Below, piece by piece: positions 2,444 through 21,363 of a stretch of 64,000 nt of DNA (position 1 is the stretch's first letter; each line of letters starts with the position of its first letter). The stretch comes from Alphaproteobacteria bacterium (GTDB lineage Bacteria; Pseudomonadota; Alphaproteobacteria; SP197). The notes beneath the pieces were generated by a model. That model ran no database searches, was not told where the DNA came from, and worked only from the letters and a program-made list of their open reading frames with translations. The position numbers and the translations under genes were made by a program. The stretch lies in contig CBDCEA010000004.1 in NCBI GenBank assembly GCA_965215635.1, forward strand, positions 48,492 to 112,491, given 5' to 3'.

Positions 2444-2452
2444 GCGTTCTCG

Positions 2453-4132
2453 TTACTGGCGGGGTCGCGCGGAACCGGGCCTCGACCGCGTGATCCCGCT
2501 TGAAAGCAGGATCACCGGCAGGATTCCCGCCACCACGATGGCGAGTGCCGCCGTCGAGGCCTCGGCAAGCCGTTCGTCGGCTGCGAGCCTCCATGTCCGG
2601 GTGGCGAGGGTCTCGAAATTGAACGGTCGGACCAGGAGTGTGGCCGGAAGCTCCTTCAGGACATCGACGAAGACCAGCAGGCCGGCTGTCATCAGGCTTC
2701 CGCGCAGCAGCGGACCGTGGATTTGGGCCAGTGTCGACCAGGGTCCGCGGCCGAGCGTCCTCGATGCACCGTCCATCATGGGTGTCACCCTGGAAAGTCC
2801 CGCGTCGGTACTGTTGTAAGCCACCGCCAGGAACCTCACCGTGTAGGCGAAGAGCAGTGCCGCTATCGATCCGGTCAGAAGAAGGCCGGTCGAAACGCCG
2901 AAGCTCGCCTTCATGAATGCGTCGAGGCGGTTGTCGAACCAGGCAAGGGGAACGAGGACACCGACCGCGATCACCGAACCCGGAATGGCATAGCCCATGG
3001 AGGCGACACGGGCGGCGACCGTCGGCAGCGGCCCCGATGCCATGCGCGCGCCGTACCCCAGGACCACGGCGGCCGTTACCGCCAGGACGGCAGCAAGGGC
3101 CGCGACCATGATCGAGTTGCCTGCGTACGTCAGGAACGACGAGCCTGAAAGCGTATCGCCTCCCTCGATCGAGAGATGAAGGAGAATGGATGCCGGAACA
3201 GCGAAACCAAGCAGGACCGGCAGGGCCGTGGCGATGAAGGCACCCCAGGCCTTCATGCCCCCGAGCTGGAGACGTGGCAGGGGCTGGAAGCGGCCGGTGT
3301 TCGCCGCATAGCGGGCCTTGCCCCGCGAAACCCTCTCCAGCATGAGCACGACGAGGACGAAGAAAAGCAGGATGTTGGCTAGCTGCGCGGCAGTCTCCGG
3401 CGAGCCTCTGATGAACCATGTCCGATAGATTCCCGTCGTGAATGTCTGGACCCCGAAGAACTCGACGGTTCCGAAGTCGGCCAGGGTTTCCATCAGGGCG
3501 AGTGCTAGTCCCGCCACAATGCCCGGCCGCGCCATGGGAAGGGCGACGCGCAGGAATGTCGACCACGGACCGAACCCCAGGGTCCGGGCGACGCCCATTG
3601 CCTGGACCGATTGGGAAAGGAACGAGGTGCGCGCCAGGAGATAGACATAAGGGTAGAGCACCAGCGAGAGCATGGCGACGGCCCCGGCGGTGGAGCGTAT
3701 CTGTGGGAACCAGTAGTCGTGGCGTTCCCAGCTTCCCAACTCCCTGAGCCAGGTCTGTACCGGCCCGGCGTATTCGAGGAGGTCCGTATAGGCGTAGGCA
3801 AGCACATAGGCCGGAGCGGCGAAGGGGAGCAACAGGGCCCATTCCATGAGACGGCGCCCGGGAAACTCGCACATCGTGACAAGCCAGGCGGTCCCCGCAC
3901 CGATCGTGCCCGCAACAATGGCGACTCCGGCAAGCAGCACGGCGGTGTTGACGACATAGACCGAGAGTATCCGTCCGGCGATCCCGGCCCAGACCTCGCC
4001 GCTGCCGGTGAAGAGGTTCGAGACAACGGCGAAGACGGGGAGCGACACGAGACCCGCGACCGCCAGTGCTGCCGCCAGGAGCAGCGGCCCTCCCCTGATG
4101 GAGAGACGGTGTCTTGCTGCCGGCAGGGTCAC
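2453..4132 (-). CDS. fbpB: Fe(3+) ABC transporter permease, duplicated-domain FbpB type
   Basis: 559-aa polytopic membrane protein with two permease repeats. GTG start overlaps the fumC stop (GTGA). Convergent with fbpA. Confidence 0.85.
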
Positions 4133-5614: not shown

Positions 5615-6070
5615 CTATTTCCTGCGGAAGGTATCGAGGGAGACAACGGTTCCGGCAGCGCTCTGCTCACCGGCGGTCGTGTCCTCGGTGGGCGCGTCTT
5701 CCCCGTCACTCCCATCCGGGGTCACCCTGAAGTTCAGTCCGAATTTGACGCTCGGATCGGCAAACGACGTGATCGCGGTCCAGGGAACACCGAGCTCGTG
5801 GGGCATGCGGTCGAACGAGAGGCCGATGGAGAAGCCCTCGTCGCCGACCTCGAGGTTCCAGAACTGATTCTGGATCACGATCGTGATTTCCTCGGGATAC
5901 CGGGCCTTCAGGGCCTTCGCAATTCTCACGCCGGGATGGTCCGTGCGGAAGGTGATATAGAAGTGATGGTCGCCGGGCAGGCCATCGCCCGCCGCGATCT
6001 CGAGGGCATGGGTGACGACGCTGCGCAACGCGTGATCGACCAGCAGTCCATAGTGGATCGATTCGCTCAT
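5615..6070 (-). CDS. sspB: ClpXP protease specificity-enhancing factor SspB (alphaproteobacterial type)
   Basis: Collinear with Caulobacter SspB-alpha: GEHHFYITF, IVLQHQFW-like IVIQNQFWNLEVGDEGFSIGLSF, and an acidic unstructured tail. Confidence 0.75.
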   Translation of the reverse strand: MSESIHYGLLVDHALRSVVTHALEIAAGDGLPGDHHFYITFRTDHPGVRIAKALKARYPEEITIVIQNQFWNLEVGDEGFSIGLSFDRMPHELGVPWTAITSFADPSVKFGLNFRVTPDGSDGEDAPTEDTTAGEQSAAGTVVSLDTFRRK

Positions 6071-6093
6071 CGGACGCCCGGGACGGTGAAGCA

Positions 6094-6131
6094 GGAAAAA
6101 GCGGAGGGCTTCTGTTGCCCGGTGCCCTCCG
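6094..6131 (-). terminator. Intrinsic-terminator-like hairpin (GGAGGGC/GCCCTCC stem then a T5 run on the minus strand)
   Basis: Read on the minus strand: GGAGGGCACCGGGCAACAGAAGCCCTCCGCTTTTTCC. Downstream of lipoprotein copy 1, about 25 nt upstream of the sspB ATG. Confidence 0.45.
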
Positions 6132-6391
6132 AACCGCGCTTTCCGCTTATGCAGCGATAGCGTACGCCTCGTTGTCGTTGGCGATTGTATGTTTGACCCG
6201 ATAACGGCGGAATCATACCGGACGAAAACCGAACCTTTACCACGCGCGTCGATCCTGGTTCGCCCCCATAAGGTTTATGGTGGAGGCGGCGGGTACTGCC
6301 CCCGCGTCCGCAACGTCTATTCCGAGCGGCGTTTATCGCCATAGCCCAGCAAGCCGGGCAACCGTTCATATAGTGCATCCGCACACCACTT

Positions 6392-7090
6392 TCAACCGTT
6401 GACGTCATCTGGTCCCGTGACCAGGCCGACTCTGCCCACCGCCACAATGAACGCTTGAGCGGCCCCCCGAAACTGGACGCCAGGTCCTTCGACGGCACCG
6501 ATTCGTGCCGCCTCGCGTTGCCTCTCGAACTCACGCAGTTCGGCGTCGCGCGCTTCGTCGATAGCGCGCGCCAGCGACTCGCAATCCTGCCAGTTCTCAT
6601 CACAAGACTGCCCCAACTCCATCGCCGCCTCTGCAGCCTCCCGCTCGATCCGTGTCCTCTGACGGTCGAAGAACGCATCGCGTTCGTTGGCATTGGAGAA
6701 CTCCTTTGGCACGAGAACAATCGTGACGCTCTCTGGATATTCGTTCATCACGCCCGAACTTGCATCGATCACCACGCCGATAACGCCCCCCAAAATAATG
6801 TTGCCAAACGTCATTGCCTGGAAGTCTGAAGAAAGGGAAGCGGCCCCATTGAAATACCTGTCCTTCTCACAAACAATGCTGATGTTATCCTTGCTTTTTT
6901 CTATCGATACCGTTCCCGGTGTGGGGTTCGCTACAGCGACCACCGAACCGTCCCGGGACAAGGTGCAGACAGCGTTCGGTGGTTCGGTAAGTACCGTCAC
7001 GGTCTGGTCGGTGCCCTCGATGATCGTCGCGCAGGCTCCCAGTACAAGCAACAAGGGGAGTATGCCCGTTACGGCCCACCGATGTTGCAT
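6392..7090 (-). CDS. Hypothetical lipoprotein (copy 1); carries a 31-aa C-terminal extension relative to copy 2
   Basis: Signal peptide with lipobox LVLGAC. Paralogous to the 17703-18308 protein. The stop position of copy 2 reads GGA here. Confidence 0.55.
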   Translation of the reverse strand: MQHRWAVTGILPLLLVLGACATIIEGTDQTVTVLTEPPNAVCTLSRDGSVVAVANPTPGTVSIEKSKDNISIVCEKDRYFNGAASLSSDFQAMTFGNIILGGVIGVVIDASSGVMNEYPESVTIVLVPKEFSNANERDAFFDRQRTRIEREAAEAAMELGQSCDENWQDCESLARAIDEARDAELREFERQREAARIGAVEGPGVQFRGAAQAFIVAVGRVGLVTGPDDVNG

Positions 7091-8439: not shown

Positions 8440-9316
8440 GAACTTCAATGGCGAGGACTGGCCCCGCGATGCCTTCGGCACATGCGTGGTGCCGATCCAC
8501 GGCCCCGCAGAGACTGGATCGGCGACCGTCCGGCTGGCCGAGAAGCGTATCAGGCTGAGGACAGGGCTCGAGGTGCGCCAGATCCGACGCCTTCTCGACA
8601 ACGGGCGCCAGGTGCCATTGATCACCACTCACCCCGCGATGCCGATGGAAGAGGTCGCCGGCTCCATGTTCTCGCGCTGGTCCCAGGAGAACTTCTTCAA
8701 GTACATGCGCGACGCGTTCAACCTCGACGCGCTGCCGGACCACGCGCTCGAGCCGATCGATCCTGACGCCCGGGTCGTCAACCCCGCCCGCAGGACTGTC
8801 GAGAAGACCATCGCCACAGTCCGGTCGCGTCTCAAGAGCCTCCATCTGCGCATCGTCAGGGCGACGAAGAAGGGCAGGCCCATCGACGATCTCGTGGCCG
8901 GGGTCGGCGCCCTCGATGAAGAACTCGAGGCGTTCAAGGAGCAACGCAAGGACCTGCCGCGCCATGTTCGCGCCGGCGACCTCCCGGAGAACCAACGGCT
9001 CGACGCCCTGCCGGTCGCAAGGCGCCTCCTCCTCGATGTCATCCGCATGATGCCACCCGTGATCGAGGCACAGGGCAAGAAATCCAATGCCCGCAAATTG
9101 CTCGCAGCGCTGATGACGGCCGACGCCAACATCCTGCCGGATCCCGGAAACGGCATCCTCCGGGTCCAGATCCTGGGTCTTGCCAGGAACGCAGTCGACC
9201 AGGCGCTCCTGCCGTTGATCGATGAACTCAACCAGACAGAAACCGTCTGTCCGGGTACCAGCCTCCGCCTCGTCTACGAAATGGCAGGCACTTCACCCCA
9301 CAATGAGGTCACCTGA
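8440..9316 (+). pseudogene. C-terminal remnant of a DDE transposase (IS4/IS701-like signature)
   Basis: SRWSQENFFKYMRD fits the YREK-region motif R-x3-E-x6-K followed by a long tail. The N-terminal catalytic region is absent. The upstream part of the ORF is GC-rich nonsense overlapping the opposite-strand gene. Confidence 0.35.
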
Positions 9317-9768
9317 ATTGGACGAGGTCAGGAAGTCTGAGCCTGTCGAATAAGCTCATCGCCAAGTCATGACGCGAGCAGGGCAGGATTGGTTCCTGTC
9401 TTTCGGCGAGGCTGTCAACCGGAAACTGTTATGCCTTCCGGTCTCTTCCGTTGAGGATTTGCAAACGCCTTTGCCCCGAAATGGGTGAAATCCTGCAAAT
9501 TGGGTCGATGACATGAAACGGTAAGGCCAAGACTGGTCGCGGTCGCCGTTTGCGCGGTGACATCGAGCGTCCCGGCGTGGGCCATCTGGTGGTGGCTCGC
9601 GCATAACGGGTGAGCGCGGCGGACGGCGGTGCGCTGCGCAGCAGGGAAGGTGCTGCGAAACGCAGGCCGGGTGGACGGTGCAAGGGAAACCGGCAGGTCT
9701 GAGGGCAGGGTTGACAACAGACTTGTTGCCAACGATATTGATGCCAACAAAACCGTTGGAATAAAGAC

Positions 9769-11020
9769 ATGATCCGAAAAGGCGGAAGCAACTGGGTCGA
9801 CGGAGAGAACTTCTTCGATCGCGAGACGGAACTGGAAGCGCTGGAAGAGCGGGTGCGGGAAGGAACCCACACCCTGCTGACCGCACAACGGCGGATGGGC
9901 AAGACCAGCCTCGTGCGGGAGCTGCAGCGCCGCCTGGCCGAAACGGGAGACTTCGAGGTCGTCTTCGTCGATCTGGAGGCGGCCACCGATCCGGCCGATG
10001 CGATTGCTGAAATCGGGGTTCAGGTGAAGCCCGTGCGTGCTGCGTGGAATCATGACCGGCTTCGCGAATCTGGTGAGGAGCGCCGGCGGCCGGATCGAGG
10101 AACTGTCGGTTGCGGATCTGAAGGTGAAGCTGCGCGCCGGGATCGATGCAGGCAATTGGCCGCAAAGAGGTGACGCGATCTTTGCCGCCCTGGCGGAAAG
10201 CGGTCGGCCGGTCGTGCTCGCGATAGACGAGTTGCCGATTCTCGTAAACCGGCTGCTGAAGGACGAGACGGGGCGCATGACGCCGGAGGGGAAGCGGGAA
10301 GCAGACGCGTTCCTGAGCTGGCTGCGCAAGGTGGGGCAGTCCCATCGGGATCGGGTCACGCTGATCCTGTCGGGCAGCGTGAGCCTCGAGCCGCTGCTTG
10401 AACGGGCCGGGCTCAGCGCCCAGGCCAATATCTTTTCTCCCTACGACCTGAAACCGTGGAGCGAGGAAACGGCCGTTTCCTGCCTGGAGGCACTTGCCGA
10501 GTCGTATGAGGTAGGTCTTGCGCCGGAGGCCCGCAGGGACATGTGCCGCAGGCTGCGTTGCTGCATCCCGCACCATGTCCAGATGTTCTTCGACAGGATG
10601 CACGATCATCTGCGGCGCGCCGGGCGGAAGGACGCCTCGCCGGAAGATGTCGAATGGGTCTATGTGCGAGAGATGCAGGGCGTCCGGGGGCAGGTCGACC
10701 TGCAGCATTACGAGGGCCGGCTGGAGACGGTCCTCGGAAGAGCGGGGTACACGGTTGCGCTGGAGATTCTGACGGCAACGGCGGTCGACGGCGATATCGC
10801 CGCTGAAACGGTCGACCGGTACCGCAGCTGGTTCTCAACGCGCGACGCGCACGACGGAGACGGTGCTTCCGCGGTCGATCATGTGCTGCGCGTGCTGCAG
10901 CACGACGGCTACCTCGAACCCGGGGACGGCGGTTACCGGTTCGTTTCCGGTCTGCTCGAGGATTGGTGGCGGGCGCGCTACGGGCAGAGGTTCGTGCCCG
11001 TGTTCGACCGGCAGCGGTAA
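9769..11020 (+). pseudogene. PF01637-like (archaeal-type) AAA ATPase, interrupted by a +1/-1 frameshift near 10025-10037
   Basis: Frame 1 carries FFDRETELEALEERVREGTHTLLTAQRRMGKTSLVREL (Walker A). Frame 2 from 10028 carries Walker B VVLAIDELP and the rest, about 417 aa if repaired. The frame 1 continuation after the shift is Arg-rich nonsense. Confidence 0.55.
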
Positions 11021-11037
11021 GAACGGGAGTCGGGCCG

Positions 11038-14000
11038 ATGGCTGTGACCGCCAGGAAGTACAATCCGGGCTTTCTCTCGATCGACGAACTGGTCGCGACC
11101 TTCTGCGTCCGGACGGCCGAGTACGAATCCCTGATCGAGGCGCTGCGCGAATGCTCGGGCAGCGCCAACACCCATCAGATCGTGATCGGGCCGCGCGGCA
11201 GCGGAAAGACGAGCCTCCTGCTGCGGGTCGCTGCGGAGGCGCTGCGCGATGCCGATCTCTCGGCGCGCTTCTTCCCGATTGTGTTCGCGGAGGAAAGCTA
11301 CGAGGTCTCGACCGCCGGCGAGTTCTGGCTCGAATGCCTTTCCCGGCTGGCCGATCAGGCGCCGCGCCGGGAAGGCGGTGTCGACTTGCAACGCACCTTC
11401 GAGGAGCTGCGCACCGTCCATGACGACCGGGCGCTGGAAGATCGGTGCCTCGGGGTGCTGCAAGACTTCGCCGACCGGGAAAAGAAGCGCGTCGTGCTGA
11501 TCGTCGAGAACCTGAACATGATGTTCAGGGACATGGGCGACGACAATGCGGGCTGGCGGCTGCGTAAGGCGCTGCAGACCGAACCGCGGATCGTTCTGCT
11601 GGCGAGCGCGACCAGCCGGTTCGACCAGATGAACGATCCGAAGGAAGCGCTCTACGAGCTCTTCCGGGTGATCCGGTTGCGTCCCCTCGACACGGAAGGC
11701 TGCGCGACCTTGTGGCAGACAGTGTCGGGGCAGGCGCGGGCGCCGCAGACGATCCAGGCGCTGCGGATTCTCACTGGCGGCAGTCCCAGGCTGCTGACCA
11801 TCGCCGCCCGTTTCGGCGCGAACCTGTCATTCCGCGAGCTGATGGCCGATCTTCTCGATCTGGTCGATGACCATACCGAGTATTTCAAGAGTCACCTCGA
11901 TGCGCTCCCGGCGCAGGAGCGAAAGGTGTATCTCGCCCTTGCCGATCTCTGGAAACCGGCGAACGCGCGCGAGATCGCGGACCGGGCCAGGCTCGGGACC
12001 AGCAAATGCAGTGCTCAGCTTGCCCGTCTGGTCGACAAGGGCGCTGTGGAAGTGACCGGCGGCAGCGCGCGGCGCAAGCTCTATTACCTGACCGAGCGGC
12101 TCTACAACATCTACTACCTGATGCGCCGGGCGCGCGGACCGGCGCCGCTGATCGATGCGCTGATCCGTTTCATGGAGGCCTACTACTCCACCGACGAGCT
12201 GAGGGAGTTCGGCGCCCGCATGGCGCGGGAAGCGCTGGGGTTCGACGGCGGTGCGTTGGCGATCTACCGGATGGCCTTCGAGCGTCTTGTCGGACTGCCG
12301 TCCCTCGAAGCGCACCGCGAGGAGCTGCTTTCGCTAGCGTCGCCTGCCTTTGCGTATGCGCCCAGTGAGTTTTCTGCGGTATCCCCGGCACTGTCGGCCG
12401 CGAGGGAGCTCTTGGGGAAAGCGCTGGCGCTCGCGGAAAGCGGTCGGTTGCAGGACGCCGTGGCGGCCTGGGACGAGGTAATCCGGAGGTTCGGGGCAAG
12501 CGATGCGCCGGCGGATCTCGAACAGGTGTCGCTGGCGCTCGTCAACAAGGGGAAGGCGTTGGGCGGGCTGGGAAGAGCGGAAGAAGCTCTGGCCGTGCTG
12601 GACGACGTGGTGCGGCGTTTCGGGGTGGACAACGGAGAAGGCCACCCTCTGGCGGTGGCGACGGCGCTCGCCGGCAAGGGCGGAATGCTGAGCAACCTGG
12701 ACCGCCACACGGAAGCGCTTACAGCCTGGAAGGAGGTCGCGCGGCGCTTCGGCAAGAGTCGGGTGCCGGCGCTCGAGGTGCTGGTGGTGAACGCGATGAT
12801 CGGGACGGCGGTCGCGCTGAACACGTTGAACCGGCACCGGGAAGCCCTGCAGGCCTGCGACGAAGTGTTGGAACGCTTCGGCAAGAGCGGTTCGCCGGCG
12901 CTTGACGGTGAATTGGCGGCAGCCATGGTCGGACGGGGTCACGCGCTGATCGCGCTGGGCCGAGTCGATGAGGCGATAAGCGCCTGGGGTGCCGTGGTGG
13001 AGCGTTTCGGGAAGAGCGACTCTCTCAGAATCGTCGAACAGGTGGCCTCGGCGCTTGCGAACATAGGCACGGCGCTGTTCCAGGCGGGCCGGTTGGAGGA
13101 AGCGCTCGCCGCGTTCGATGGGGTCGTGCAAAGCTACACGGCAAACGATGCGCCGATCCTCCGGGAGGTGATAGCGCGCTGTTTCGTCAACAGAGGCAAC
13201 GTGCTGGCCGCGCTGAAGCGGGAAACGGAAGCGCTCTCGTCGTGGGAAGAAGCGATCAGGGGCTTCGAGGCGGGCGGTTTGCCGGAGGTGGCAGAACCGT
13301 TTTGCAACGCGCTGATGAACAGGGCGGCGGCGCTGCACCATGCGGGAAGGCCGGAGGAAGCGCTGGATATGTGGGGCGGCGTGGTGGAACGCTTCGGGGC
13401 CGACGACCGGCCCGCACTCCTCACCATGGTCGCGAATGCCCAGACTCACAGGGGCGCCTTGCTGGAACAGTTGGGCCGATACGAGGAGGCACTCGCGGTC
13501 TGGCAGGAGGTTGAAGACCGTTTCGGGAACAGCGACATGCCGGAATGGGTCGCGCTGATCGCAAGCTGCTTCCAGCACAGGTGCGCCGACCTGTTCGAGC
13601 TGAACCGGACGGAAGAGGCGCTCGCAACGTGCGACCGGGCGATCGACCGATTCGGGCAAAGCCCCGTACCGGCGGTTCTTGAGACAGTCGCGGGGATATT
13701 TCTGAACAAGGGAATCGTGCTCGTCACTGCACACAGGAACGAGGAGGCGCTGGCGGTCTGGGACGAGATCGAACGGCGTTTCGGAAACAACTACGAGCCG
13801 GAAATTTTGAAGCACGTTGCCTCGGCCCTCGTCAGCAAGGGTACGACGCTGGTCCATATGAACAGGGCGGAGGACGCGGTTGGGGTATGGGGCGACGTCG
13901 TGCGCCGGTTCGGGGAGGGCGACTCACCCCTGTATCACGAGGAGATTGCGACGTCTGTCCTCAACAGGGTGGTGGTGCTGGGCTTGTTGAACCGGCCGGA

Positions 14001-14670
14001 CGAGGCGCTTGAGGCCTGTGACGAGGCGCTCCGGCGATTCGGGAGCGGTGAAGACCCTTACGGTGTTGAGGCAGTCGCACAAACTCTCGTTAGTAAGGGT
14101 TCGCTCCTTGCCGGTCTGGACCGGACCGAGGAGGCGTTCGCTGCGTGGGACGAGGTTGTCCGGCGCTTCGAGGCGAGCGATGAGCCGGCGCTTCGCGACG
14201 CGGCGGAATCGGCGCTGTGCCGGCGGGCACAGCACGAATTGACCGAAGGCCGGGCAAGGGACGCCGTCGCGTTTCTCGACCGTGCGCTGCTGCAGGGGCG
14301 GGCGGGAATTCCAGACAGCAGACTGCAGGGCCATCTGATCCGGGCCCGGGCGCACTTGGCGGAAGGCGATGGCGAAGCATGCGCCGGGGATGTCGAGACG
14401 ACACTGTCGATCCTTCCCGAATTGAACATGTTGCCGAGGGACGTGCTGGTGGCTCTGGCCGATCTCTCGGCGGGTGTCGGGCTGGAGAGGATGTGCGGTC
14501 TGATCAAGTCGTCGCCCGCTGACGATCTCCTGCTTCCGTTGAGGACGGCGCTGGAGCGCGAACTTGGGTTGGAGCCGAGGGTGGCCAGGGAAGTCGAAGA
14601 GATTGCCGAAGACATACGCCGGGAATTGCTTGTCGGGCGCAAGACTGAGGAGCAACGACGGACGGCTTGA
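11038..14670 (+). CDS. P-loop NTPase (PF01637/STAND-like) fused to a ~620-aa array of ~14 tandem 44-aa TPR-like repeats
   Basis: Walker A GPRGSGKTSLLL, Walker B-like VVLIVENLN, sensor-like RIVLLASATSRF. Then repeats of the pattern EEALAxWDEVxxRFGxSDxPxxxExVAxALxNKGxxL. SD GGAG sits 8 nt before the ATG at 11038. 17 nt downstream of the preceding ATPase. Confidence 0.7.
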   Translation: MAVTARKYNPGFLSIDELVATFCVRTAEYESLIEALRECSGSANTHQIVIGPRGSGKTSLLLRVAAEALRDADLSARFFPIVFAEESYEVSTAGEFWLECLSRLADQAPRREGGVDLQRTFEELRTVHDDRALEDRCLGVLQDFADREKKRVVLIVENLNMMFRDMGDDNAGWRLRKALQTEPRIVLLASATSRFDQMNDPKEALYELFRVIRLRPLDTEGCATLWQTVSGQARAPQTIQALRILTGGSPRLLTIAARFGANLSFRELMADLLDLVDDHTEYFKSHLDALPAQERKVYLALADLWKPANAREIADRARLGTSKCSAQLARLVDKGAVEVTGGSARRKLYYLTERLYNIYYLMRRARGPAPLIDALIRFMEAYYSTDELREFGARMAREALGFDGGALAIYRMAFERLVGLPSLEAHREELLSLASPAFAYAPSEFSAVSPALSAARELLGKALALAESGRLQDAVAAWDEVIRRFGASDAPADLEQVSLALVNKGKALGGLGRAEEALAVLDDVVRRFGVDNGEGHPLAVATALAGKGGMLSNLDRHTEALTAWKEVARRFGKSRVPALEVLVVNAMIGTAVALNTLNRHREALQACDEVLERFGKSGSPALDGELAAAMVGRGHALIALGRVDEAISAWGAVVERFGKSDSLRIVEQVASALANIGTALFQAGRLEEALAAFDGVVQSYTANDAPILREVIARCFVNRGNVLAALKRETEALSSWEEAIRGFEAGGLPEVAEPFCNALMNRAAALHHAGRPEEALDMWGGVVERFGADDRPALLTMVANAQTHRGALLEQLGRYEEALAVWQEVEDRFGNSDMPEWVALIASCFQHRCADLFELNRTEEALATCDRAIDRFGQSPVPAVLETVAGIFLNKGIVLVTAHRNEEALAVWDEIERRFGNNYEPEILKHVASALVSKGTTLVHMNRAEDAVGVWGDVVRRFGEGDSPLYHEEIATSVLNRVVVLGLLNRPDEALEACDEALRRFGSGEDPYGVEAVAQTLVSKGSLLAGLDRTEEAFAAWDEVVRRFEASDEPALRDAAESALCRRAQHELTEGRARDAVAFLDRALLQGRAGIPDSRLQGHLIRARAHLAEGDGEACAGDVETTLSILPELNMLPRDVLVALADLSAGVGLERMCGLIKSSPADDLLLPLRTALERELGLEPRVAREVEEIAEDIRRELLVGRKTEEQRRTA

Positions 14671-14689
14671 TCGTTTCAGTCAGAGTCGA

Positions 14690-14899
14690 CCCGACATGCC
14701 GGACGATCCATGGCCAATCGACTTCGCCGAGCGGTGCATGGACGGCAACGAGCCGGACGCGGTGAACGATGCGGGACAGCAGGATGGTCATTGCCTGGCT
14801 GTCCTTGCCACCGATGGTGTTGATCGCCACGAAGGCTCCGGCCCGGATCATGTCCCGGCAGTCCGAAGGGACACGGATGTCGGCGAGGTCGGTGGCCAT
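14690..14899 (-). pseudogene. N-terminal fragment of a PAPS-reductase-like PP-loop protein, truncated where it meets the 3' end of the NTPase-TPR gene
   Basis: MATDLADIRVPSDCRDMIRAGAFVAINTIGGKDSQAMTILL carries the SGGKDS PP-loop. The reading frame then runs into the convergent 11038-14670 gene, so only ~70 aa are present. Confidence 0.4.
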
Positions 14900-15345
14900 G
14901 GATGGGTCTCCCAGTTGGCGGTGCGGGGGTCACACTCCGGCCCCAGGCGTCGCCCGGAGGACGTCGGCCGCCACCTCCGGGGGGCGTGCTACTCGGAACC
15001 GGAAGACCTACTCGTTGGATGAAGCGCACCGTCCGGGGCCGTCCCGGGGACGCGGGGCCTGGATTCCCGAAGGGGCGGAATCCGTGCTACCTCTAAGACC
15101 GCTTCGGCCCCCTTTCGGCCGGGAGCAGCGACAACGGGCGGGCAGCGAGGGACATGGGGTTGAAACCGGGCGATGTCGATGCGATGACGGGTGCTGGCGG
15201 GAGCTTCTCTGGATGGAACAACCAATTGAGGGAACGCTACGGGTCAGGCACGTCAGACTCGGGTCGGTGCACGGCGCTCGGCAAAACAAACAGAAACGCT
15301 GCAGAGGTGACAACGATGCTAGAAAACCAGCATATCGTTTCAGAT

Positions 15346-16338
15346 AGGAACCAGTATCGAGAGCGGCTCGAAGGCTACCTCGAAACGGTTCTTCAGCTCG
15401 GTGTTTCCTTGCAGGACTAGGACGGGCACGAGACGCTGCCTGTCTTTCTGACCCGACTCTACCGGTTCTTCGAGACTCGGATCGGTCAGTCGCCGCTTCT
15501 CTTCATGTCTGCGAGGCAAACCGGGGAACACACTCCGGCAGAGATCGCGAAGCACCTTGATCTGGCGAAGCCGGAGTTCGACGGAATAGTCGTCTATTCA
15601 GCCGAACGAATTGCTGCGGGCTTTCGCGCACGGCTTGTTGCAGCTGGCGTGGCCTTCGCCGTTCCCGGCAATCAGCTGTTTGTTCCGGAACTCGCAACGG
15701 ACTTGCGCGAGCATTTCAGGGGGCCGAAGCCGGAGCGGCCCGACAAGCTATCGCCATCGGCTCAACTGGTTCTGTTTTTCCACCTCCTCCAAGGTGAGCA
15801 GGCGCGGTCATGGACGCCAACCGAGCTCACAGAACCACTTCGGTATTCGATCATGACCATGGGCCGGGCTTTTGATGAGCTTGCCGCCGTCGGACTTGCC
15901 CGGATCGAGCGACGTGGCCGCAAGAAGCTCTTGTGGTTCCGCGCGGAGGGGCGCTTGCTGATTGATACTGCAAAGACGCTCCTGATTCGTCCTGAACGTC
16001 GGCTAGACCACATTCGCTGGCTGAAGGAGCCGCCTGATTTGCCGCTGGCTGGCGAGCATGCCCTCGCGCGGCTCAGCGATCTCAGCCCGCCAGCGGTGCC
16101 ACCGGTTTACGCAGTGACGCCGGAACAGATGCGAGATTTCCTCGCGGTTGGGTGGGCGGATCTGAGGGAGGCGGACTACGACTCGGACGGAACACTTGCG
16201 ACTTGGCGATACGACCCGCAGGTATTGTCACGGAACGATTTGGTCGATCCGCTCTCTCTCTTCGCACAGTTTTGGGATGACCCCGACGAACGCTTGTCCA
16301 TGGCCGTCGATCGACTGCTGGAGCGATGGACATGGTGA
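15346..16338 (+). pseudogene. AbiEi-like wHTH antitoxin candidate, interrupted by an in-frame TAG at 15418-15420 (alternatively an intact 277-aa product from ATG 15505)
   Basis: Frame 1 is open 15154-16338 except for a single TAG. Sequence on both sides of the TAG reads protein-like (MLENQHIVSDRNQYRERLEGYLETVLQLGVSLQD / DGHETLPVFLTRLYRFFETR). There is a low-GC leader before ATG 15346. Winged-helix segment SIMTMGRAFDELAAVGLARIERRGRKKLLWF. The last 13 nt overlap the downstream gene. Confidence 0.4.
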
Positions 16339-16974
16339 GAGGGCTTGACCGGTTCCGAGAGCATTTCGCCGGGCACGAAGAAAGCTATGCGCTGATTGGC
16401 GGTGCTGCCTGCGATATCCTCTTCGGAGAAGCCGGGCTTCCGTTTCGGGCCACCAGGGACTTCGACATTGTGCTATGCGTCGAGGTCGTCAGTGCCGAAT
16501 TTGGCACGGGCTTTGCAGATTTCCTGGAAGCAGGTCGATATCGGGCCAGGGAGCGCTCGACCGGCAGGCGGGAATTCTCCCGCTTTCATCGCCCTGCAGA
16601 CGAAACGTTCCCGGCAATGATTGAACTCTTCGCCCGACGACCGGATACACTGAATAAGCCTTATCGACGAGACGATCCTTATCCCGTTTAAAGCACGTGC
16701 TTTTCTCGATCCTTCCGGACGCAAGGCGAATGGCGAAGACGTTGATGCCCGGCACATACGAAAGCACCGCGCTGATGTGTTCCGGCTCGCCCAGCTGTTG
16801 CCGGGCAGCGGCAACCTGCCCCTCGCCGACCCCTTACGGGCTGACCTGGCCGCGTTTCTCGATCAGGTCGCAAGCGATCCGGACTTCGATTACAAGGCGT
16901 TAAAGCTACCACTGCCGCTGGCGGATGCGACGGCAATACTGGATGGGTACTATCAGCTCAGCTCTTCTGCCTAG
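16326..16974 (+). pseudogene. AbiEii-type minimal nucleotidyltransferase toxin candidate, frameshifted near 16654-16691
   Basis: The N-terminal frame has the NTase motif LIGGAACDILFGEAGLPFRATRDFDIVL (hGG...R.T.DFD). After the stop at 16691 the protein continues in another frame from 16654: ISLIDETILIPFKARAFLDPSGRKANGEDVDARHIRKHRADVFRLAQLL... to 16974. Confidence 0.5.
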
Positions 16975-17217
16975 ATCGTGCCCCGCAGACTGGTGTGCAC
17001 TCATCGGCAAAGGACGGCAGCATTGCGGGTCTTGTATGAGGTTGCCTTCGCTGCATTGAATGGTTGCGAGTAACGGCCCTGTTCTGGACGCCTGATAGCG
17101 CTTTTGTTGCCTGGATGGTTCGTATCCTGTGGAGACCGGGATCGAAGACGCAACCCTCAGCGACGCGGAATCTGGAGGCGCCCGGACGACTGATATTTTG
17201 CCGCGGTTCCGATTGAA

Positions 17218-17597
17218 CACAGGCTTGTGCACATCCAGAGCATGCGTCTTTCCTCCACAGAATCCGCCAGCGCATGCCTTTTCTGGCCGACTGGCGCATG
17301 CTCTGCCTTCGGAAAGTTCACTGACGTGATGAAGCTGGTTGCTCCGGGCGTGCCCGGGAGTCAGACCGCATGGAGGCAAGGGTCGATCGAACGGAGTAGG
17401 GCGTCAGGATGATAACCGCGGACCAGCGCGAGCAGATCAGAACGCAGCGTGCCTCAAGGAACGATAACCGGCGTGTCGTCAGCCTGGCGCTGGAGGAGAT
17501 CCTGTACGAACCCATGGCGGTGCTCGATCACGGTTTCGTGCGTGTCGTCGACTACATGGGCAATGACGATGCCATCGTGCAGGCGGCCCGCGTGTCA
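17218..17597 (+). pseudogene. Displaced 5' fragment of thyX (promoter region plus first ~63 codons); ~85% identical to 20226-20620
   Basis: Nucleotide alignment with the intact thyX 5' region. Homology stops abruptly at 17597, where the lipoprotein module begins. Confidence 0.6.
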
Positions 17598-17602
17598 CAC
17601 GT

Positions 17603-18590
17603 AGTTCATCCGCTCATCCGCACACCACTTGCAACTGTTGAAGGCTCCTGGCCATCATCACAATGAACGCCTGAGCGGGGCTGCCCGAAACCTGACACCA
17701 GATCACTCGGCAGCGCCGATTCGAGCCGCCTTACGCTGCCTTTCAAGCTCACGCAGTTCGGCGTCGCGCGCTTCCTCGATAGCGCGTACCAGCGACTCGC
17801 ACTCCTGCCTGTTCCCTTCACAAGACTGCTGCAACGTAGCCACCATCCCAGCGGCCTCCCGCTCGATCCGTGTCCGCTGGCGGTCGAAGAACGCATCGCG
17901 GTCGTTGGCGGTGGAGAACGCTTCCGGCGCGAGAACAATCGTGACGCTGGCCGGGTATTCGTTCATCGCACCCGAGCTTGCATCGATGGCCAGGCCGATA
18001 AAGCCGCCGATAAGAATGTTGCCAAACGTCATTGCCTGGAAGTCTGAAGAAAGAGCAGCGGCGCCATTGAAGTACCCGTCCTTCTCACAAATGATGCCGA
18101 TGTTATCCTTGCTTTTTTCTACCGATACCGTCCCCGGTGTAGGATTCACCACAGCGACCGTCGCTTCGTCCTGGGACAAGGTGCAGACAGCGTTCGGTGG
18201 TTCGGTAAGTACCGTCACGGTCTGATCGGTGCCCTCGACGATCGTCGCGCAGGCTCCCAGAACAAGCGACAAAAGGAGTATGCCCGTTACGGCCCACCGA
18301 TGTTGCATTGCACCCTCCAGGTGTCGATATCTGCTCGCGAGACGATTCGTTTATCACGTGTAACCAGGATTTCCCATGTGGCACCCTTCAGCCAGGTTGA
18401 GCGTGGCCCGGGATCGCTCAACGGGCAGGCCCGATGGGTTCTGCCACCATGATCATGTCCGACACCGCGAAATCAGAGAGTCAACGGGACATGGTGGCAT
18501 GCGATATTGCCGACCCTGTCGTCATGCTGGAGAGGGGCGTCGGCCCGAGCCGGTCGATCCAGACACCCGCCGGGTCCGCGAAGGCGACGT
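17603..18590. repeat. Copy 2 of the duplicated lipoprotein module
   Basis: About 85% nucleotide identity to 6362-7410. The left boundary coincides with the thyX-fragment junction. Confidence 0.8.
17703..18308 (-). CDS. Hypothetical lipoprotein (copy 2, 201 aa)
   Basis: Signal peptide plus lipobox LVLGAC. Paralogue of the 6392-7090 protein. Confidence 0.55.
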   Translation of the reverse strand: MQHRWAVTGILLLSLVLGACATIVEGTDQTVTVLTEPPNAVCTLSQDEATVAVVNPTPGTVSVEKSKDNIGIICEKDGYFNGAAALSSDFQAMTFGNILIGGFIGLAIDASSGAMNEYPASVTIVLAPEAFSTANDRDAFFDRQRTRIEREAAGMVATLQQSCEGNRQECESLVRAIEEARDAELRELERQRKAARIGAAE

Positions 18591-18792: not shown

Positions 18793-20200
18793 TTTGCGGG
18801 CCTCAGGGCAAGCCTCTCCAGGCCGTCCTCTTCAAGAGGGCGACCAGAGGTCGAAGCGGTCTGTCGGAGCCGCCCTATGGGGCGGCGAGACGTATCAACT
18901 GGTCGACCGTCAGGGCAAGGATACCGAACATGAGATGGCAGGCGACCTTCGCGTGTCCCCGGACGCGGACATGGCGCCCGCCGAACTCGTCCTTGAGGCG
19001 GGCGTTGGTCCTCTCGACACCGGAACGGATCCGGAAACGCACGCTCCCGGGGTCGACATGGCCCGCCGCACGCCGGGCCCGGGCCTCCCGGTCCAGCTCC
19101 TCCTTGAGTTCCTTGTCCCGGCGCGGGTTGACGTCGATGATCGGAACATGGCCAAGGCGTTCACTTGTCTGGTGGATCTCCCTGGCGTCATAGGCCGAGT
19201 CCATGAGATCGTAGAGGTTGGTCACACGCCCGGCGGTCATCATCGCCAGCGGGATCGCGACCTGGCTGTCATGGATAGATGCCGAAGTGAGGATGGCACT
19301 CAGCGGCACTCCGCAGTCCGCCGTGTCGATATGCAGTTTGTAACCTTGCCAGGTCGTCTGGAACCCCTTGGCGTTCTTCTTGGCCCCATGATTGCAGAGC
19401 TTCGGCAGCTCGGCGAGCATCTCATCGAGACTCATGCCGTTGACCTGCTGTTCGAGACGGCTCGGTTTTTTCGTCTTCTCCTCGCCCTTAGCGTCGTCGG
19501 CCGCGCTTGCGTTTCGGTGTCTTGTCGGCCTCCGGCTTCGGTGCCGGCTTCTCCCGGGCCTCGATGGCCGTCGAGTCCCTCGACACGTGGCCGATGAGCT
19601 CGTCGCCCATCGCCTCTTCAACCAGGGCCTCGTGCATCCTCTCCGGAATACGGAACTGCGAGAACTCGGCAAACGCCCGTGAAAACGTCGCCTCGCTCGG
19701 GATCTCCACGACACGCGACCAGCCGCACAGTCTCCGCAGCGTCGGGTCCACCTTGAGCCTGTCGATCAGATGGCGGGTCGTCGGCAGATCCCACACGGCC
19801 TTGGCGATGAAGCCGCGGGCCAGCGCCCGGCGATCCTCCTGGGGCCGTCCCGGACCGTTCCAGACCTCACCGATGAAGCGCTCCACCCTGACGAGATCGA
19901 GAGCCGTCACGAAGCGTTTGTGCACCTCCAGGAGAGGTCCAACCTCCTCGGCCAGCGCAGGGAAAAGTTCCCCTTGAAATCGGTGCCAGATGTCCGATAG
20001 GGTCGAACCAAGGGTCATCGGGGTCGCCTCCGCGGTATCTTGGGGATTAGGAAAATCCAATATACCACCAGGCGGCCCCGGAACCCAGGCGCCTTACACC
20101 AAAATCAGCCCCGACAAGGCAAAAAACCTGTCATTCCGACAGTTTTGCAAGAGCCTCATCTGACACCGAACGTGGAATCACCGTCCAAGAGGTCCAACGC
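18793..20200 (-). mobile_element. IS5-family insertion sequence; ends approximate
   Basis: Contains a two-frame transposase. Imperfect terminal matches (GAGGAACTTTGCGG near 18797; GGTGAACTTCGGCG on the complement near 20200). The ends were not confirmed by clean inverted repeats or a target-site duplication. Confidence 0.5.
18875..20060 (-). CDS. IS5-family DDE transposase split into two overlapping frames (N-terminal part 19488-20060, C-terminal DDE part 18875-19714)
   Basis: The N-terminal part has the InsH-like DNA-binding region. The C-terminal part has HIDTADCGVPL...IHDSQVAIPL...ERTNARLKDEFGGRHVRVRG. The frames overlap by 226 nt and there is an A6 run near the junction. Either a programmed frameshift or an inactivating indel. 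Confidence 0.6.
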
Positions 20201-20433
20201 CGAAGTTCACCTGGGGAATGCGGGTTAAACACAGACTTGTGCACACAGTTGTCTTCAAACTCCCGTTTTTCTTCGAAATATAGTCTGCCAGCGCATGCCA
20301 TTTCTGCCCGACCGGCGCATGCTCTGCTTTCGGACAGTTCACTGACGTGACGAATCCGATCGCTCCGGTCGTCAATGAATCGACAACCGCGTGGAGGCAA
20401 GGGTCGATCGAACGAAGGAAGGCGTCAGCAGGG

Positions 20434-21363
20434 ATGATGATAACTGCGGACCAGCGCGAACAGATCACAACGCAGCGTGCCTCAAGGAACGATACCCGGC
20501 GTGTCGTCAGTCCGGCGCTGGAGGAGCTCATGTACGAGCCCATGGCGGTGCTCGATCACGGTTTCGTGCGTGTCGTCGACTACATGGGCAATGATGATGC
20601 CATCGTGCAGGCGGCTCGGGTGTCATACGGTACGGGGACAAAGTCGGTGCGCGGCGATGCCGGTCTGATCGGCTACCTGATGCGTCACAGGCACACGACA
20701 CCCTTCGAGATGTGCGAGATCAAGTACCATGTGAAGCTTCCGGTGTTCGTGGCCCGCCAGTGGATTCGCCACCGCACCGCCAACGTCAACGAGTATTCTG
20801 CGCGCTATTCGATCCTGGACCGGGAATTCTATATCCCGGCACCCGAGAGCCTGGCTGCACAGTCATCGATCAACGGGCAGGGCAGGGGCCAACTGCTCGA
20901 AGGAGACGAGGCGCAATCTGTACTGCAGATCCTGAAGGAGGATGCCGGCAAGGCCTGCGACGATTACGAGCACATGCTGAACGAAGGCGAGCATGCCGAT
21001 CCTTGCCGTCTCGGATTGGCACGGGAACTCGCCAGGATCAATCTGCCTCTGGGGATCTATACACAGTGGTACTGGAAGACCGATCTTCACAATCTCTTCC
21101 ACTTCCTGGCGCTGAGGGCCGATTCCCATGCCCAGTACGAGATCCGCGTCTATGCCGAAGCCATGCTGGAAACCGTCAAGGCCTGGGTGCCGCTCGCCTA
21201 TGAGGCCTTCGTCGAGTGCCGGTTCGGGGGCGCGGAACTGACGGCAGGCCAGCTCGCCGTGCTGCGCCGCATGTTGAAGGGCGAGGAGGTGACGCTCGAG
21301 ACGAGCGGGCTCGGCAAGAGGATGTGGGACGAGCTTCAGGCGGTGCTGGACGCTACTCGATGA
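20434..21363 (+). CDS. thyX: FAD-dependent thymidylate synthase
   Basis: [43 protein letters not shown] is the ThyX signature (RHRxxS-like). The 5' ~190 nt overlaps the duplicated thyX segment. Confidence 0.85.

Follow-up and report, generated by a model that had tools for sequence, protein, structure and literature searches.

A pseudogenised AbiE/MenAT-like module in an alphaproteobacterial chromosome and its widespread intact relatives

Introduction

Two adjacent, interrupted genes in a 64,000-nucleotide stretch of alphaproteobacterial DNA (hereafter the window) raised the question of what kind of module they represent and whether it is still functional. A sequence-only reading of the window had described them as an AbiEi/AbiEii-like toxin-antitoxin pair in which both genes carry lesions. 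AbiE, composed of AbiEi and AbiEii, is a type IV toxin-antitoxin and abortive infection system characterized in Streptococcus agalactiae and Lactococcus (Dy et al. 2014, PMC3985639). The MenT nucleotidyltransferase toxins pair with antitoxins from several unrelated families (PMC10435456, PMC11375011). In the following, the first gene of the pair is called A and the second B. The locus is a pseudogenised AbiE/MenAT-like module, in which a nucleotidyltransferase (NTase) of a distant AbiEii/MenT type is paired with a predicted DNA-binding regulator, and the region 15134-16974 probably represents a mobile two-gene operon whose chromosomal copy has recently been inactivated. The features of the locus are collected in Table 1.

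Table 1. Features of the inactivated module (positions in the window)
Feature	Position	Strand	Observations
Module leader	15134-15314	+	Still alignable to leaders of homologous modules in unrelated genomic contexts
54-nt deletion junction	15314/15315	+	Placed by alignments to L003 and to the syntenic intact L089
Gene A pseudogene	15316-16338	+	340 codons; length and collinearity as in homologues
Nonsense codon TAG	15418-15420	+	G-to-A at 15419; ancestral TGG = Trp35
Residual 277-aa ORF	15505-16338	+	Identical to P0241; predicted by gene finders
(CT)5 tract of gene A, prone to slippage	16252-16261	+	In frame in the window; (CT)6 in L007/L008; (CT)7 in P0243
Gene B pseudogene	16332-16974	+	Split by a 125-nt internal deletion
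Gene B 5' remnant	16332-16691	+	NTase core with GG, R-A-T-R-D-F-D and Glu98; then out of frame to TAA 16689-16691
125-nt deletion junction	16653/16654	+	Placed by alignment to homologues; identical junction in L007 and L008
Gene B 3' remnant	16654-16974	+	Frame 1; helical C-terminal domain, K-A-R-A-F and K-H-R-x-D-V-F-R motifs, native TAG stop

Results

The lesions of the two genes

Homology places the start of gene A at ATG 15316, which gives 340 codons; the earlier assignment to an ATG at 15346 (about 330 amino acids) had to be corrected, as the codon at this position is AGG. The remaining description of the gene was accurate. Apart from the TAG at 15418-15420, frame 1 has no stop between 15154 and 16338, the internal ATG at 15505 opens a 277-aa reading frame, and the full-length protein begins upstream of the TAG, since the homologues are 339-341 amino acids long and have a tryptophan at that codon. 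The codon is TGG in L089, L090, L003, L006 and L009, and TAG is also found in L007. Trp35 is conserved in at least 90% of the family, and polarisation with outgroups indicated that W35* is derived in the window lineage. Recoding or read-through of the TAG was considered and rejected because gene B, in the window and in homologues alike, ends naturally in TAG, and because the orthologue carries TGG.

The 121-aa ORF at 16326-16691 with the NTase signature LIGGAACDILFGEAGLPFRATRDFDIVL and the continuation of the NTase in another frame (ISLIDETILIPFKARAFLD..., 16654-16974) were both found as described. However, alignment showed that what had been taken for a frameshift is a deletion of 125 nt. It removed about 42 codons (41 codons plus 2 nt, frame +2), approximately codons 108-150 of the intact 255-aa protein, and with them the invariant S-L-S-A-I-L block. 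Outgroup polarisation also identified derived substitutions in gene B, namely G69R (16536) and Y83S (16579), both at conserved positions, and L169P (16712). The proposed 13-nt overlap between the genes holds if B starts at ATG 16326, but the homologues start at the position of ATG 16332 and an overlap of 7 nt is the commonest. The possibility that gene A genuinely starts at 15505 and that the NTase is naturally about 120 amino acids long was contradicted by the homologues, in which the proteins have 339-341 and about 255 amino acids, respectively.

A third lesion, overlooked in the sequence-only reading, lies upstream of gene A. The leader of the window aligns locally to that of L003 from about 15102 to 15314, where the alignment is broken by the loss of 54 nt. 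The missing segment, GCGGACTAACATTGTCATTGAACACTAACATGTAGCATGTTAGTGTTCAGAGAT, comprises the ribosome-binding region of gene A and a perfect palindrome with 14-nt arms, TGAACACTAACATG-TAG-CATGTTAGTGTTCA, located just upstream of the gene. The palindrome is a putative operator and promoter core. Of 80 family loci, 68 have a TAAC-N1-13-GTTA palindrome between -90 and +10 relative to the A start. In 640 kb of background sequence such a palindrome occurred 11 times, and the 64-kb window does not contain it at all. Scans for the sigma-70 consensus detected no promoter in positions 15000-17200 of the window, and the sole match in L003 was on the minus strand; we therefore infer, rather than read directly, the promoter around the palindrome. 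L089 and L090 have their own 53-nt deletion within the leader stretch that corresponds to 15134-15314.

The lesions are real and decay continues

L089 and L090 carry an intact module at the equivalent chromosomal position, with 98.9% identity across the module, and this comparison pinpoints all three lesions. In L089, A occupies 9001-10026 and B 10020-10787. Measured against these syntenic loci, the window copy has gained a nonsense codon and has lost 125 nt of gene B and 54 nt of regulatory sequence. Further marks of a pseudogene are the recurrence of the lesions in L007 and L008, the additional frameshift alleles and the derived changes at invariant residues.

Sequencing or assembly artefacts masking a module that is intact in the living cell have to be considered, as the window is a single assembly and the private 5-nt deletion that it carries in a gene neighboring the module could in principle be an assembly error. 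We regard this explanation as highly improbable. L007 and L008 are independent assemblies from different ENA samples, 99.8% identical, and they reproduce the TAG, the 125-nt junction and the absence of the 54 nt. In addition, consensus errors do not typically take the form of 54-nt and 125-nt deletions or of a G-to-A transition, and the derived substitutions at invariant B positions fit relaxed selection. L007 and L008 also carry a +CT frameshift, (CT)6, at the repeat in gene A, and P0243 has +CTCT, (CT)7. The sharing of the lesions by independent sister assemblies, together with the added (CT)n frameshift, indicates that the mutations are real and that decay is continuing.

The intact winged helix and C-terminal domain of the 277-aa ORF raised the possibility that it functions as an orphan regulator, perhaps next to a surviving 119-aa NTase core, in a remodelled rather than a dead locus. 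The ORF is called by gene finders (P0241), and since the split from L089 gene A of the window lineage has accumulated one nonsense, one amino-acid and two synonymous changes. Nevertheless, the product would lack the first 63 residues of the conserved N-terminal domain, including the invariant Y21, L26, F44 and Y49, and would face a locus deprived of its palindromic target and its ribosome-binding region, in which no consensus promoter was detected (15000-17200). In near-identical sister genomes, frameshifts in the form of the (CT)6 and (CT)7 alleles (P0173, P0243) truncate the conserved C-terminus of the ORF, which is therefore not maintained by selection. As for the 119-aa core, it is devoid of the C-terminal Lys motif, whose lysine has essential counterparts in AbiEii (K173, PMC3985639) and in MenT1 (K137, PMC11375011). 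Taken together, a functional remnant seems very improbable, and we favor the inactivated module. The proposal that the pair belongs to a decaying island was also borne out, as the neighborhood shows further signs of decay and rearrangement. Within it, a PAPS-reductase-like remnant on the minus strand (14760-14899) had been suspected from a GGKDS motif and was dropped because there was no Pfam match.

The gene B product is a probable distant relative of AbiEii and MenT

The AlphaFold model of B (pLDDT 80.6) has a nucleotidyltransferase fold. Its best PDB matches in Foldseek were 5uvd (NTase-like, E = 3.7e-4), MenT1 (8an5_A, 8rr5) and 4ok0 (E = 2e-3); the structural matches are modest (E about 4e-4, TM 0.4-0.5). 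The best functionally characterized match was the toxin MenT1, while MenT3, MenT4 and AbiEii itself were absent from the top structural matches. The top matches, 5UVD from Paracoccidioides brasiliensis and 4OK0, a putative nucleotidyltransferase from Helicobacter pylori, share only 12-14% identity with B and lack both a known function and an A-like partner. 5UVD was also the best PDB sequence-profile match of B, over the GG..R-x-T-x-D-x-D region; in the search with close relatives it was a marginal match (E = 1.3).

The motifs of the protein are strongly conserved. The R-x-[ST]-x-D-h-D motif is present in 115 of 116 B homologues, and the 5' remnant of the window retains it as RATRDFD. The GG motif was found in 107 of the 116, with a GG-to-DhD spacing of 18 residues in 115, and K-x-x-A-[FYW] in 113 as well as, in the form KARAF, in the 3' remnant of the window; 83 divergent B representatives show no variation at K162 or A165. 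Motif IV, [KR]DxxD, occurs in none of the 116 homologues, and its place is taken by a K-H-R-x-D-[LIVM]-x-R block with an invariant D190.

The search with HMMER against the Pfam AbiEi and AbiEii models, which had been suggested as a check, gave no match for the window copy. More broadly, the window copy and its close relatives fell below every threshold in Pfam, NCBIfam and PADLOC, and no protein model of PADLOC-DB v2 matched either protein at E <= 1. The reconstructed window B did not match PF08843 (AbiEii) at E <= 1, and 7 of 40 close relatives matched it, but only below threshold (best E = 0.0046). Among the 83 divergent representatives, chosen from clusters at 50% identity, 46 matched PF08843 at E <= 1; the best (E = 4.1e-9) is, by bit scaling, above the gathering score of 22.5 bits, and a member from Sulfurospirillum reached 18.9 bits, below that score. 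PGAP assigns the name AbiEii/AbiGii to a 31%-identical B member, and the gene upstream of it is an A homologue (hhalign probability 98.8%). Weak matches to NTP_transf_5, DUF6036 and Aminoglyc_resit were found beside those to AbiEii. The link to PF08843 through divergent members suggests that B is a divergent branch of the AbiEii superfamily rather than a clean member. A HEPN/MNT interpretation, in which the NTase would be the antitoxin, was rejected: A consists of alpha/beta and winged-helix domains and does not have a conserved Rx4-6H, and B is a full-size AbiEii-like protein and not a minimal MNT.

The gene A product is a three-domain winged-helix protein

A has an N-terminal alpha/beta domain, a winged helix-turn-helix at about residues 147-208 and a C-terminal domain (AlphaFold model of the homologue P0122, pLDDT 87.8). 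The winged-helix segment noticed from the sequence was confirmed by MarR_2 matches in 56 of 78 A relatives, by structural matches to ArsR/MarR proteins and by a marginal ArsR winged-helix match in the PDB profile search with close relatives. The assignment to AbiEi did not fare as well. A has no significant match to an AbiEi profile (COG5340/COG4861; Pfam AbiEi_1 to AbiEi_4) or structure: no AbiEi family was detected at E <= 5 in 39 A relatives, and no AbiEi structure was recovered in the structural searches. The winged helix is also not N-terminal. The one trace was the AbiEi_2 profile (PF09952), which aligned to the C-terminal domain in 3 of 78 relatives with E values no better than 0.034; this domain may be remotely related to AbiEi_2. 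Apart from this, the N- and C-terminal domains matched nothing known. Thus, a coupled two-gene module disabled in both genes stands from the initial proposal, but a significant AbiEi relationship and a simple frameshift do not.

The intact family is widespread and mobile

At least 566 species genomes carry the intact A-B pair, as do 51 plasmids, conjugative plasmids among them, and the family amounts to about 2,000-3,400 clusters at 50% identity. The two-gene unit with overlapping genes extends from Alphaproteobacteria to Campylobacterota and Firmicutes plasmids. All 80 genome loci compared, which come from many phyla, have A immediately before B. The two genes overlap by 4-16 nt, and in 70 of the loci the overlap is of 7 nt and of the ATGGTGA type, which suggests translational coupling. 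The layout is that of AbiE-type operons, with overlapping genes, the regulator first and a palindrome next to the A start. The module moves between phyla as a unit at 76-89% identity, and insertion sequences (also in the plasmid copies) and restriction genes are found as its neighbors.

Discussion

The A-B pair resembles AbiE in several respects. Both are bicistronic, and the regulator gene comes first and overlaps the second by 4 nt in abiE and by 7 nt in A-B; the first protein is a winged-helix protein with an inverted repeat in its own promoter region, predicted in the case of A-B; and the second is a Pol-beta-fold NTase with the motif I GG, a motif II R-x3-D-x-D, a longer-than-usual GG-to-DhD spacing and a C-terminal Lys motif, K-x-x-A-aromatic (motif III). 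The arginine in R-x3-D-x-D is the family-specific Arg of the AbiEii motif II (PMC3985639). In AbiEii, motif I has the form hG[GS], and the motif III lysine stands in hydrophobic surroundings of the K-L-x-A-aromatic-x-x-R type. There are also differences. B does not have motif IV, the +DxxD pentad that has been described as unique to DUF1814 (PMC3985639, PMC10435456), but has K-H-R-x-D-V-F-R instead, and its spacing is 18 rather than 15 residues. A has 340 amino acids with the winged helix in the middle, whereas AbiEi proteins have about 195-295 with the winged helix at the N-terminus, and the putative A-B operator is a single tight palindrome by the start codon, in contrast to the IR1-N27-IR2 arrangement of AbiE.

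The comparison with MenT1 of Mycobacterium tuberculosis (Rv0078A; 8AN5, 8RR5) leads to a similar picture. The T-x-D core is common to both proteins, T39/D41 in MenT1 (PMC11375011) and T41/D43 in B, and B also has the downstream lysine of the essential type. However, B is about 60 residues longer, and the extra part includes the S-L-S-A-I-L segment that is deleted in the window. The partners differ as well: MenA1 has 68 amino acids and MenAT1 shows no transcriptional autoregulation, and A is much larger than the known antitoxins of the AbiE/MenAT class. Since the partners of MenT toxins come from several unrelated families, a new partner family such as A fits the pattern.

Intact A may bind the palindrome, with its core ACTAACA..TGTTAGT located 3-14 nt upstream of its own start, and repress the operon, and it may also neutralize the B product. 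By analogy with MenT and AbiEii, B, a 255-aa protein placed in the AbiEii/MenT (DUF1814) superfamily, would be a growth-arresting toxin that adds nucleotides to tRNA 3' ends, and its activity could be silenced when the antitoxin induces autophosphorylation of the conserved Thr41. Once the toxin was destroyed, there would be no selection for the antitoxin or the operator and the module would decay neutrally; the lesions would thus have arisen toxin-first.

A different function for the intact family, a regulator with a non-toxic NTase active in small-molecule or antibiotic modification or in signalling, the window copy being lost through disuse, could explain the weak matches of B to NTP_transf_5, DUF6036 and Aminoglyc_resit, the unusual size of A for an antitoxin, with two domains that match nothing known, and the lack of a PADLOC match. 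We consider it unlikely in view of the strict conservation of the overlapping unit over such a range of hosts, its transfer between phyla among insertion sequences and restriction genes, the autoregulatory-type palindrome at the A start, and the AbiEii/MenT-specific R-x-T-x-D-x-D of a protein whose best characterized structural match is a toxin. We tentatively propose instead that the A-B pair may define an unrecognized group of NTase-based toxin-antitoxin or abortive-infection systems with a very wide distribution, in which a new three-domain winged-helix partner would repress through the conserved ACTAACA..TGTTAGT operator and control a MenT-like toxin, possibly through Thr41 autophosphorylation. 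If so, the N-terminal alpha/beta domain of A would provide a sensing or neutralizing function unseen in AbiEi or MenA, and the window would represent a naturally occurring knock-out, with intact alleles next to it in sister populations.

As a broken copy, the locus is ordinary and will not surprise a specialist, since decayed toxin-antitoxin loci are common and MenT-type toxins with diverse antitoxins are already known; the intact family offers a modest lead towards a new toxin-antitoxin variant. This large, unannotated family has AbiE/MenAT-like hallmarks, a putative operator that is conserved, and a partner protein of uncharacterized fold class. Near-identical genomes that carry, at the same position, either an intact or a naturally inactivated allele provide ready-made controls for studies of toxicity, autoregulation and the antitoxin mechanism. 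With regard to annotation, the 277-aa "regulator" and the 119/121-aa "hypothetical protein" both derive from a single dead module, and a pseudogene label would be correct for each of these fragments. In RefSeq, members of the family are labelled "hypothetical protein" and "MarR family regulator".

Gene structure and conservation of the module

Inspection of the ORFs and translations bore out most of the sequence-only reading. Frame 1 of gene A, which encodes a winged-helix protein, is interrupted by a single TAG and leaves a 277-aa ORF downstream. The nucleotidyltransferase (NTase) gene, B, begins with a 121-aa ORF containing LIGGAACDILFGEAGLPFRATRDFDIVL and continues as ISLIDETILIPFKARAFLD...SSSA in a different frame. 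The proposed A start, ATG 15346, was incorrect (the codon there is AGG). Taken from ATG 15316, the frame-1 product is collinear with the 340/341-aa homologue encoded upstream of B relatives, which has a Trp at the position of the window TAG.

The joined B fragments retrieved 1,263 clusters, nearly all those listed being 252-257 aa long, and in the alignment to homologues the two window pieces border a gap of about 42 residues. The repaired A protein retrieved 771 clusters with a typical length of 339-341 aa. These lengths contradict the alternative of a genuine A start at 15505 and a natural NTase length of about 120 aa. Contigs encoding close B relatives always carried the 340/341-aa gene immediately 5′, overlapping B by 7 nt. 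A was immediately 5′ of B in all 80 species-representative genomes compared, which span many phyla, with an overlap of 7 nt in 70 and 4-16 nt in the remainder. This strictly conserved pair of overlapping genes moves as one unit from phylum to phylum and onto plasmids.

The modules most closely related to this one (74-89% B protein identity) are found in metagenome-assembled genomes (loci L009-L018) labeled Binatia, Tectimicrobiota, Defluviicoccus, Thermodesulfobacteriota, Paracoccaceae, and Bryobacterales, and several record names suggest sponge-associated communities as their habitat. The presence of near-identical modules in different phyla points to recent horizontal transfer, possibly inside one habitat. 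Intact modules were also located beside an AAA_23 ATPase, integrase fragments, and IS1595 (outgroup locus L006, 6775-7929), and between IS3, IS256, and IS21 elements adjoining a type II restriction endonuclease on a Shinella plasmid (L091, 9208-10314). Both neighborhoods are mobile-element or defense-island-like.

Within the 120 nt 5′ of A, the best inverted repeat at most loci was a variant of (TGCA/GAAC)ACTAACA-N-TGTTAGT(...), which stops 3-14 nt before the start codon and is kept even at just 33-45% A identity. A TAAC-N1-13-GTTA palindrome was present between -90 and +10 of the A start in 68 of the 80 loci, with 11 occurrences in the other 640 kb of those loci and none in the 64-kb window. 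This palindrome has the signature of an autoregulatory operator, to which the A winged helix would bind, like the operator at the regulator promoter of abiE (Dy et al. 2014, PMC3985639).

Lesions in the window copy

The 90% cluster of the 277-aa ORF also includes an intact 341-aa protein, P0242. This protein comes from loci L089 and L090, which show synteny with the window (an AAA_16-TPR gene 5′; thyX, parA-like, and Band_7 genes 3′), code for undamaged A (341 aa) and B (255 aa) proteins, and share 98.9% identity with the window over the module. Comparison with L089 defined three lesions, listed in the table with the other features.

Features of the module and its surroundings in the window
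Feature	Position	Strand	Detail
alpha_tmRNA gene	6056-6399	-	two-piece (permuted); alpha_tmRNA at 6100-6399
AAA ATPase_2 gene	9769-11020	+	418-aa ORF in L007 and L089
ATPase_2 5-nt deletion	~10046-10048	+	window-private; leaves ORFs of 134 and 327 aa
Open frame 1	15154-16338	+	sole break TAG 15418-15420
Lesion 1	15314/15315	+	54-nt deletion; perfect palindrome TGAACACTAACATG-TAG-CATGTTAGTGTTCA and ribosome-binding region lost
Gene A	15316-16338	+	winged-helix protein
Lesion 2	15419	+	G-to-A; TGG to TAG, Trp35 to stop
277-aa ORF	from ATG 15505	+	
(CT)5 tract	16252-16261	+	
121-aa ORF	16326-16691	+	
Gene B	16332-16974	+	NTase
Lesion 3	16653/16654	+	125-nt deletion; frame shifted
B continuation	16654-16974	+	ends at TAG 16972-16974
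Direct repeat	17263-17601, 20284-20629		~340 nt, 87% identical, spans thyX 5′ end
ThyX-like N-terminus	17409-17666		
201-aa ORF	17703-18308	-	between thyX repeats
IS5-like DDE transposase	18875-19714	-	between thyX repeats; Pfam DDE_Tnp_1, E = 3.5e-17

Damage to both genes had been proposed. The TAG in A and the change of frame in B stood, but the B lesion is a deletion rather than a plain frameshift; it takes out codons ~108-150, including an invariant S-L-S-A-I-L block. Lesion 1, 5′ of A, had not been reported, and it removed exactly the conserved palindrome. The initial observation was therefore confirmed overall, with its coordinates and lesion type corrected and one lesion added. Polarization with outgroup loci L003, L006, and L009 assigned the TAG to the window lineage, together with four B amino-acid changes, three of which (G69R, Y83S, and L169P) fall at invariant or near-invariant positions. 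In the window copy the operator is deleted, A is truncated at codon 35, and B is split and mutated. L089 and L090 carry a 53-nt leader deletion of their own 5′ of the operator (L089 ~8820/8821; window ~15134-15186), flanked by ACGGG microhomology; the window and L003 keep this stretch.

An assembly artefact was considered as the source of the lesions. Two sister assemblies from different ENA samples, L007 and L008, are 99.8% identical to the window across 15 kb, share its TAG and deletion junction, and also lack the palindrome. The lesions are real. Another, improbable explanation is that the 277-aa ORF survives as an orphan regulator. L007 and L008 have an additional CT in the (CT)5 tract, which frameshifts the conserved A C-terminus, and P0243, a third allele, differs from the window sequence by an added CTCT. 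Three slippage-tract length alleles among near-identical genomes show that even the residual 277-aa ORF is not maintained, and decay of the module is continuing. Third-codon-position divergence between the window and L089 was 1.8% in A and 0.9-2.8% in B (15316-16974), compared to 8.8% and 7.0%, respectively, in the AAA_16-TPR and ATPase_2 genes of the flanks (9769-14675), indicating that the module, a pseudogene in the window, is much younger than its flanks. This pattern suggests recent recombination or module transfer between lineages, plus very recent inactivation.

Relationships of the A and B proteins

Neither window protein directly matched Pfam, NCBIfam, or PADLOC. Modeled with AlphaFold (pLDDT 80.6), intact B has a Pol-beta nucleotidyltransferase fold. 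The PDB entries that best matched this model were 5uvd (NTase-like), those of MenT1, a toxin of M. tuberculosis (8an5_A, 8rr5), and 4ok0, at E ~4e-4 to 2e-3 with TM scores in the range 0.4-0.5. Among 116 B homologues, GG was found in 107, R-x-[ST]-x-D-h-D in 115, Glu98 in all 116, K-x-x-A-aromatic in 113, and K-H-R-x-D-x-x-R in 112, while AbiEii motif IV (+DxxD) occurred in none. Dy et al. (2014, PMC3985639) describe both the motif II Arg and the long spacing between motifs I and II as specific to AbiEii, and motif IV as specific to DUF1814. The T-x-D core of B corresponds to T39/D41 of MenT1, where T39 is the site of autophosphorylation induced by the antitoxin (PMC11375011). When all 1.84 billion representatives were scanned with HMMER, 3,391 clusters passed E <= 1e-3 and 2,088 passed E <= 1e-10. 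PF08843 (AbiEii) was matched at E <= 1 by 46 of 83 divergent representatives (best E = 4.1e-9) and by just 7 of 40 close relatives, every one below threshold. PGAP gives the name "AbiEii/AbiGii toxin family" to a 31% identical B member encoded on a Sulfurospirillum plasmid, and the 333-aa "hypothetical protein" 5′ of it is homologous to A (hhalign probability 98.8%). Motifs, fold, and PF08843 results together place B, an NTase, in a divergent branch of the AbiEii/MenT superfamily; it is not a clean Pfam member.

Intact A, modeled at pLDDT 87.8, has three domains: an alpha/beta domain (residues 1-135), the winged helix (~147-208), and a third domain (212-340). Sequence and structure searches returned MarR/ArsR-type winged helices only and matched no AbiEi model or structure. 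An AbiEi_2 trace in the C-terminal domain (E = 0.034 or weaker, 3 of 78 relatives) is a lead, not a result. The AbiE-like interpretation holds for the superfamily and the operon logic, but not for family membership, above all that of A.

By analogy with MenT toxins, B would be an NTase that arrests growth, its probable target being tRNA 3′ ends, and A would repress the operon and neutralize the B product; less probably, the same gene pair could be a non-toxic NTase plus its regulator. Under the toxin-antitoxin interpretation, inactivation of B may have lifted selection on A and the operator, leading to neutral decay. What the window holds is an ordinary toxin-antitoxin-like module turned pseudogene; the wider family, which lacks annotation, is a variant of the AbiE/MenAT kind and merits a modest follow-up.

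Genomic surroundings

The module lies in a plastic stretch adjoining ssrA, with transposases and STAND-like ATPases. The ssrA gene is a classic island integration site. The tmRNA (tag ANDNEAYAIAA by ARAGORN; Rfam alpha_tmRNA, 247.8 bits) is alphaproteobacterial, which places the host in the Alphaproteobacteria. The deletion that splits the ATPase_2 gene either marks a further fresh pseudogene in this region or reflects an error of assembly. Transposases, this private deletion, and duplication of the thyX 5′ end around an insertion make the earlier description of a decaying island reasonable. In L090, thyX is directly 3′ of B, and L008 has an additional 1.8 kb after position 17607.
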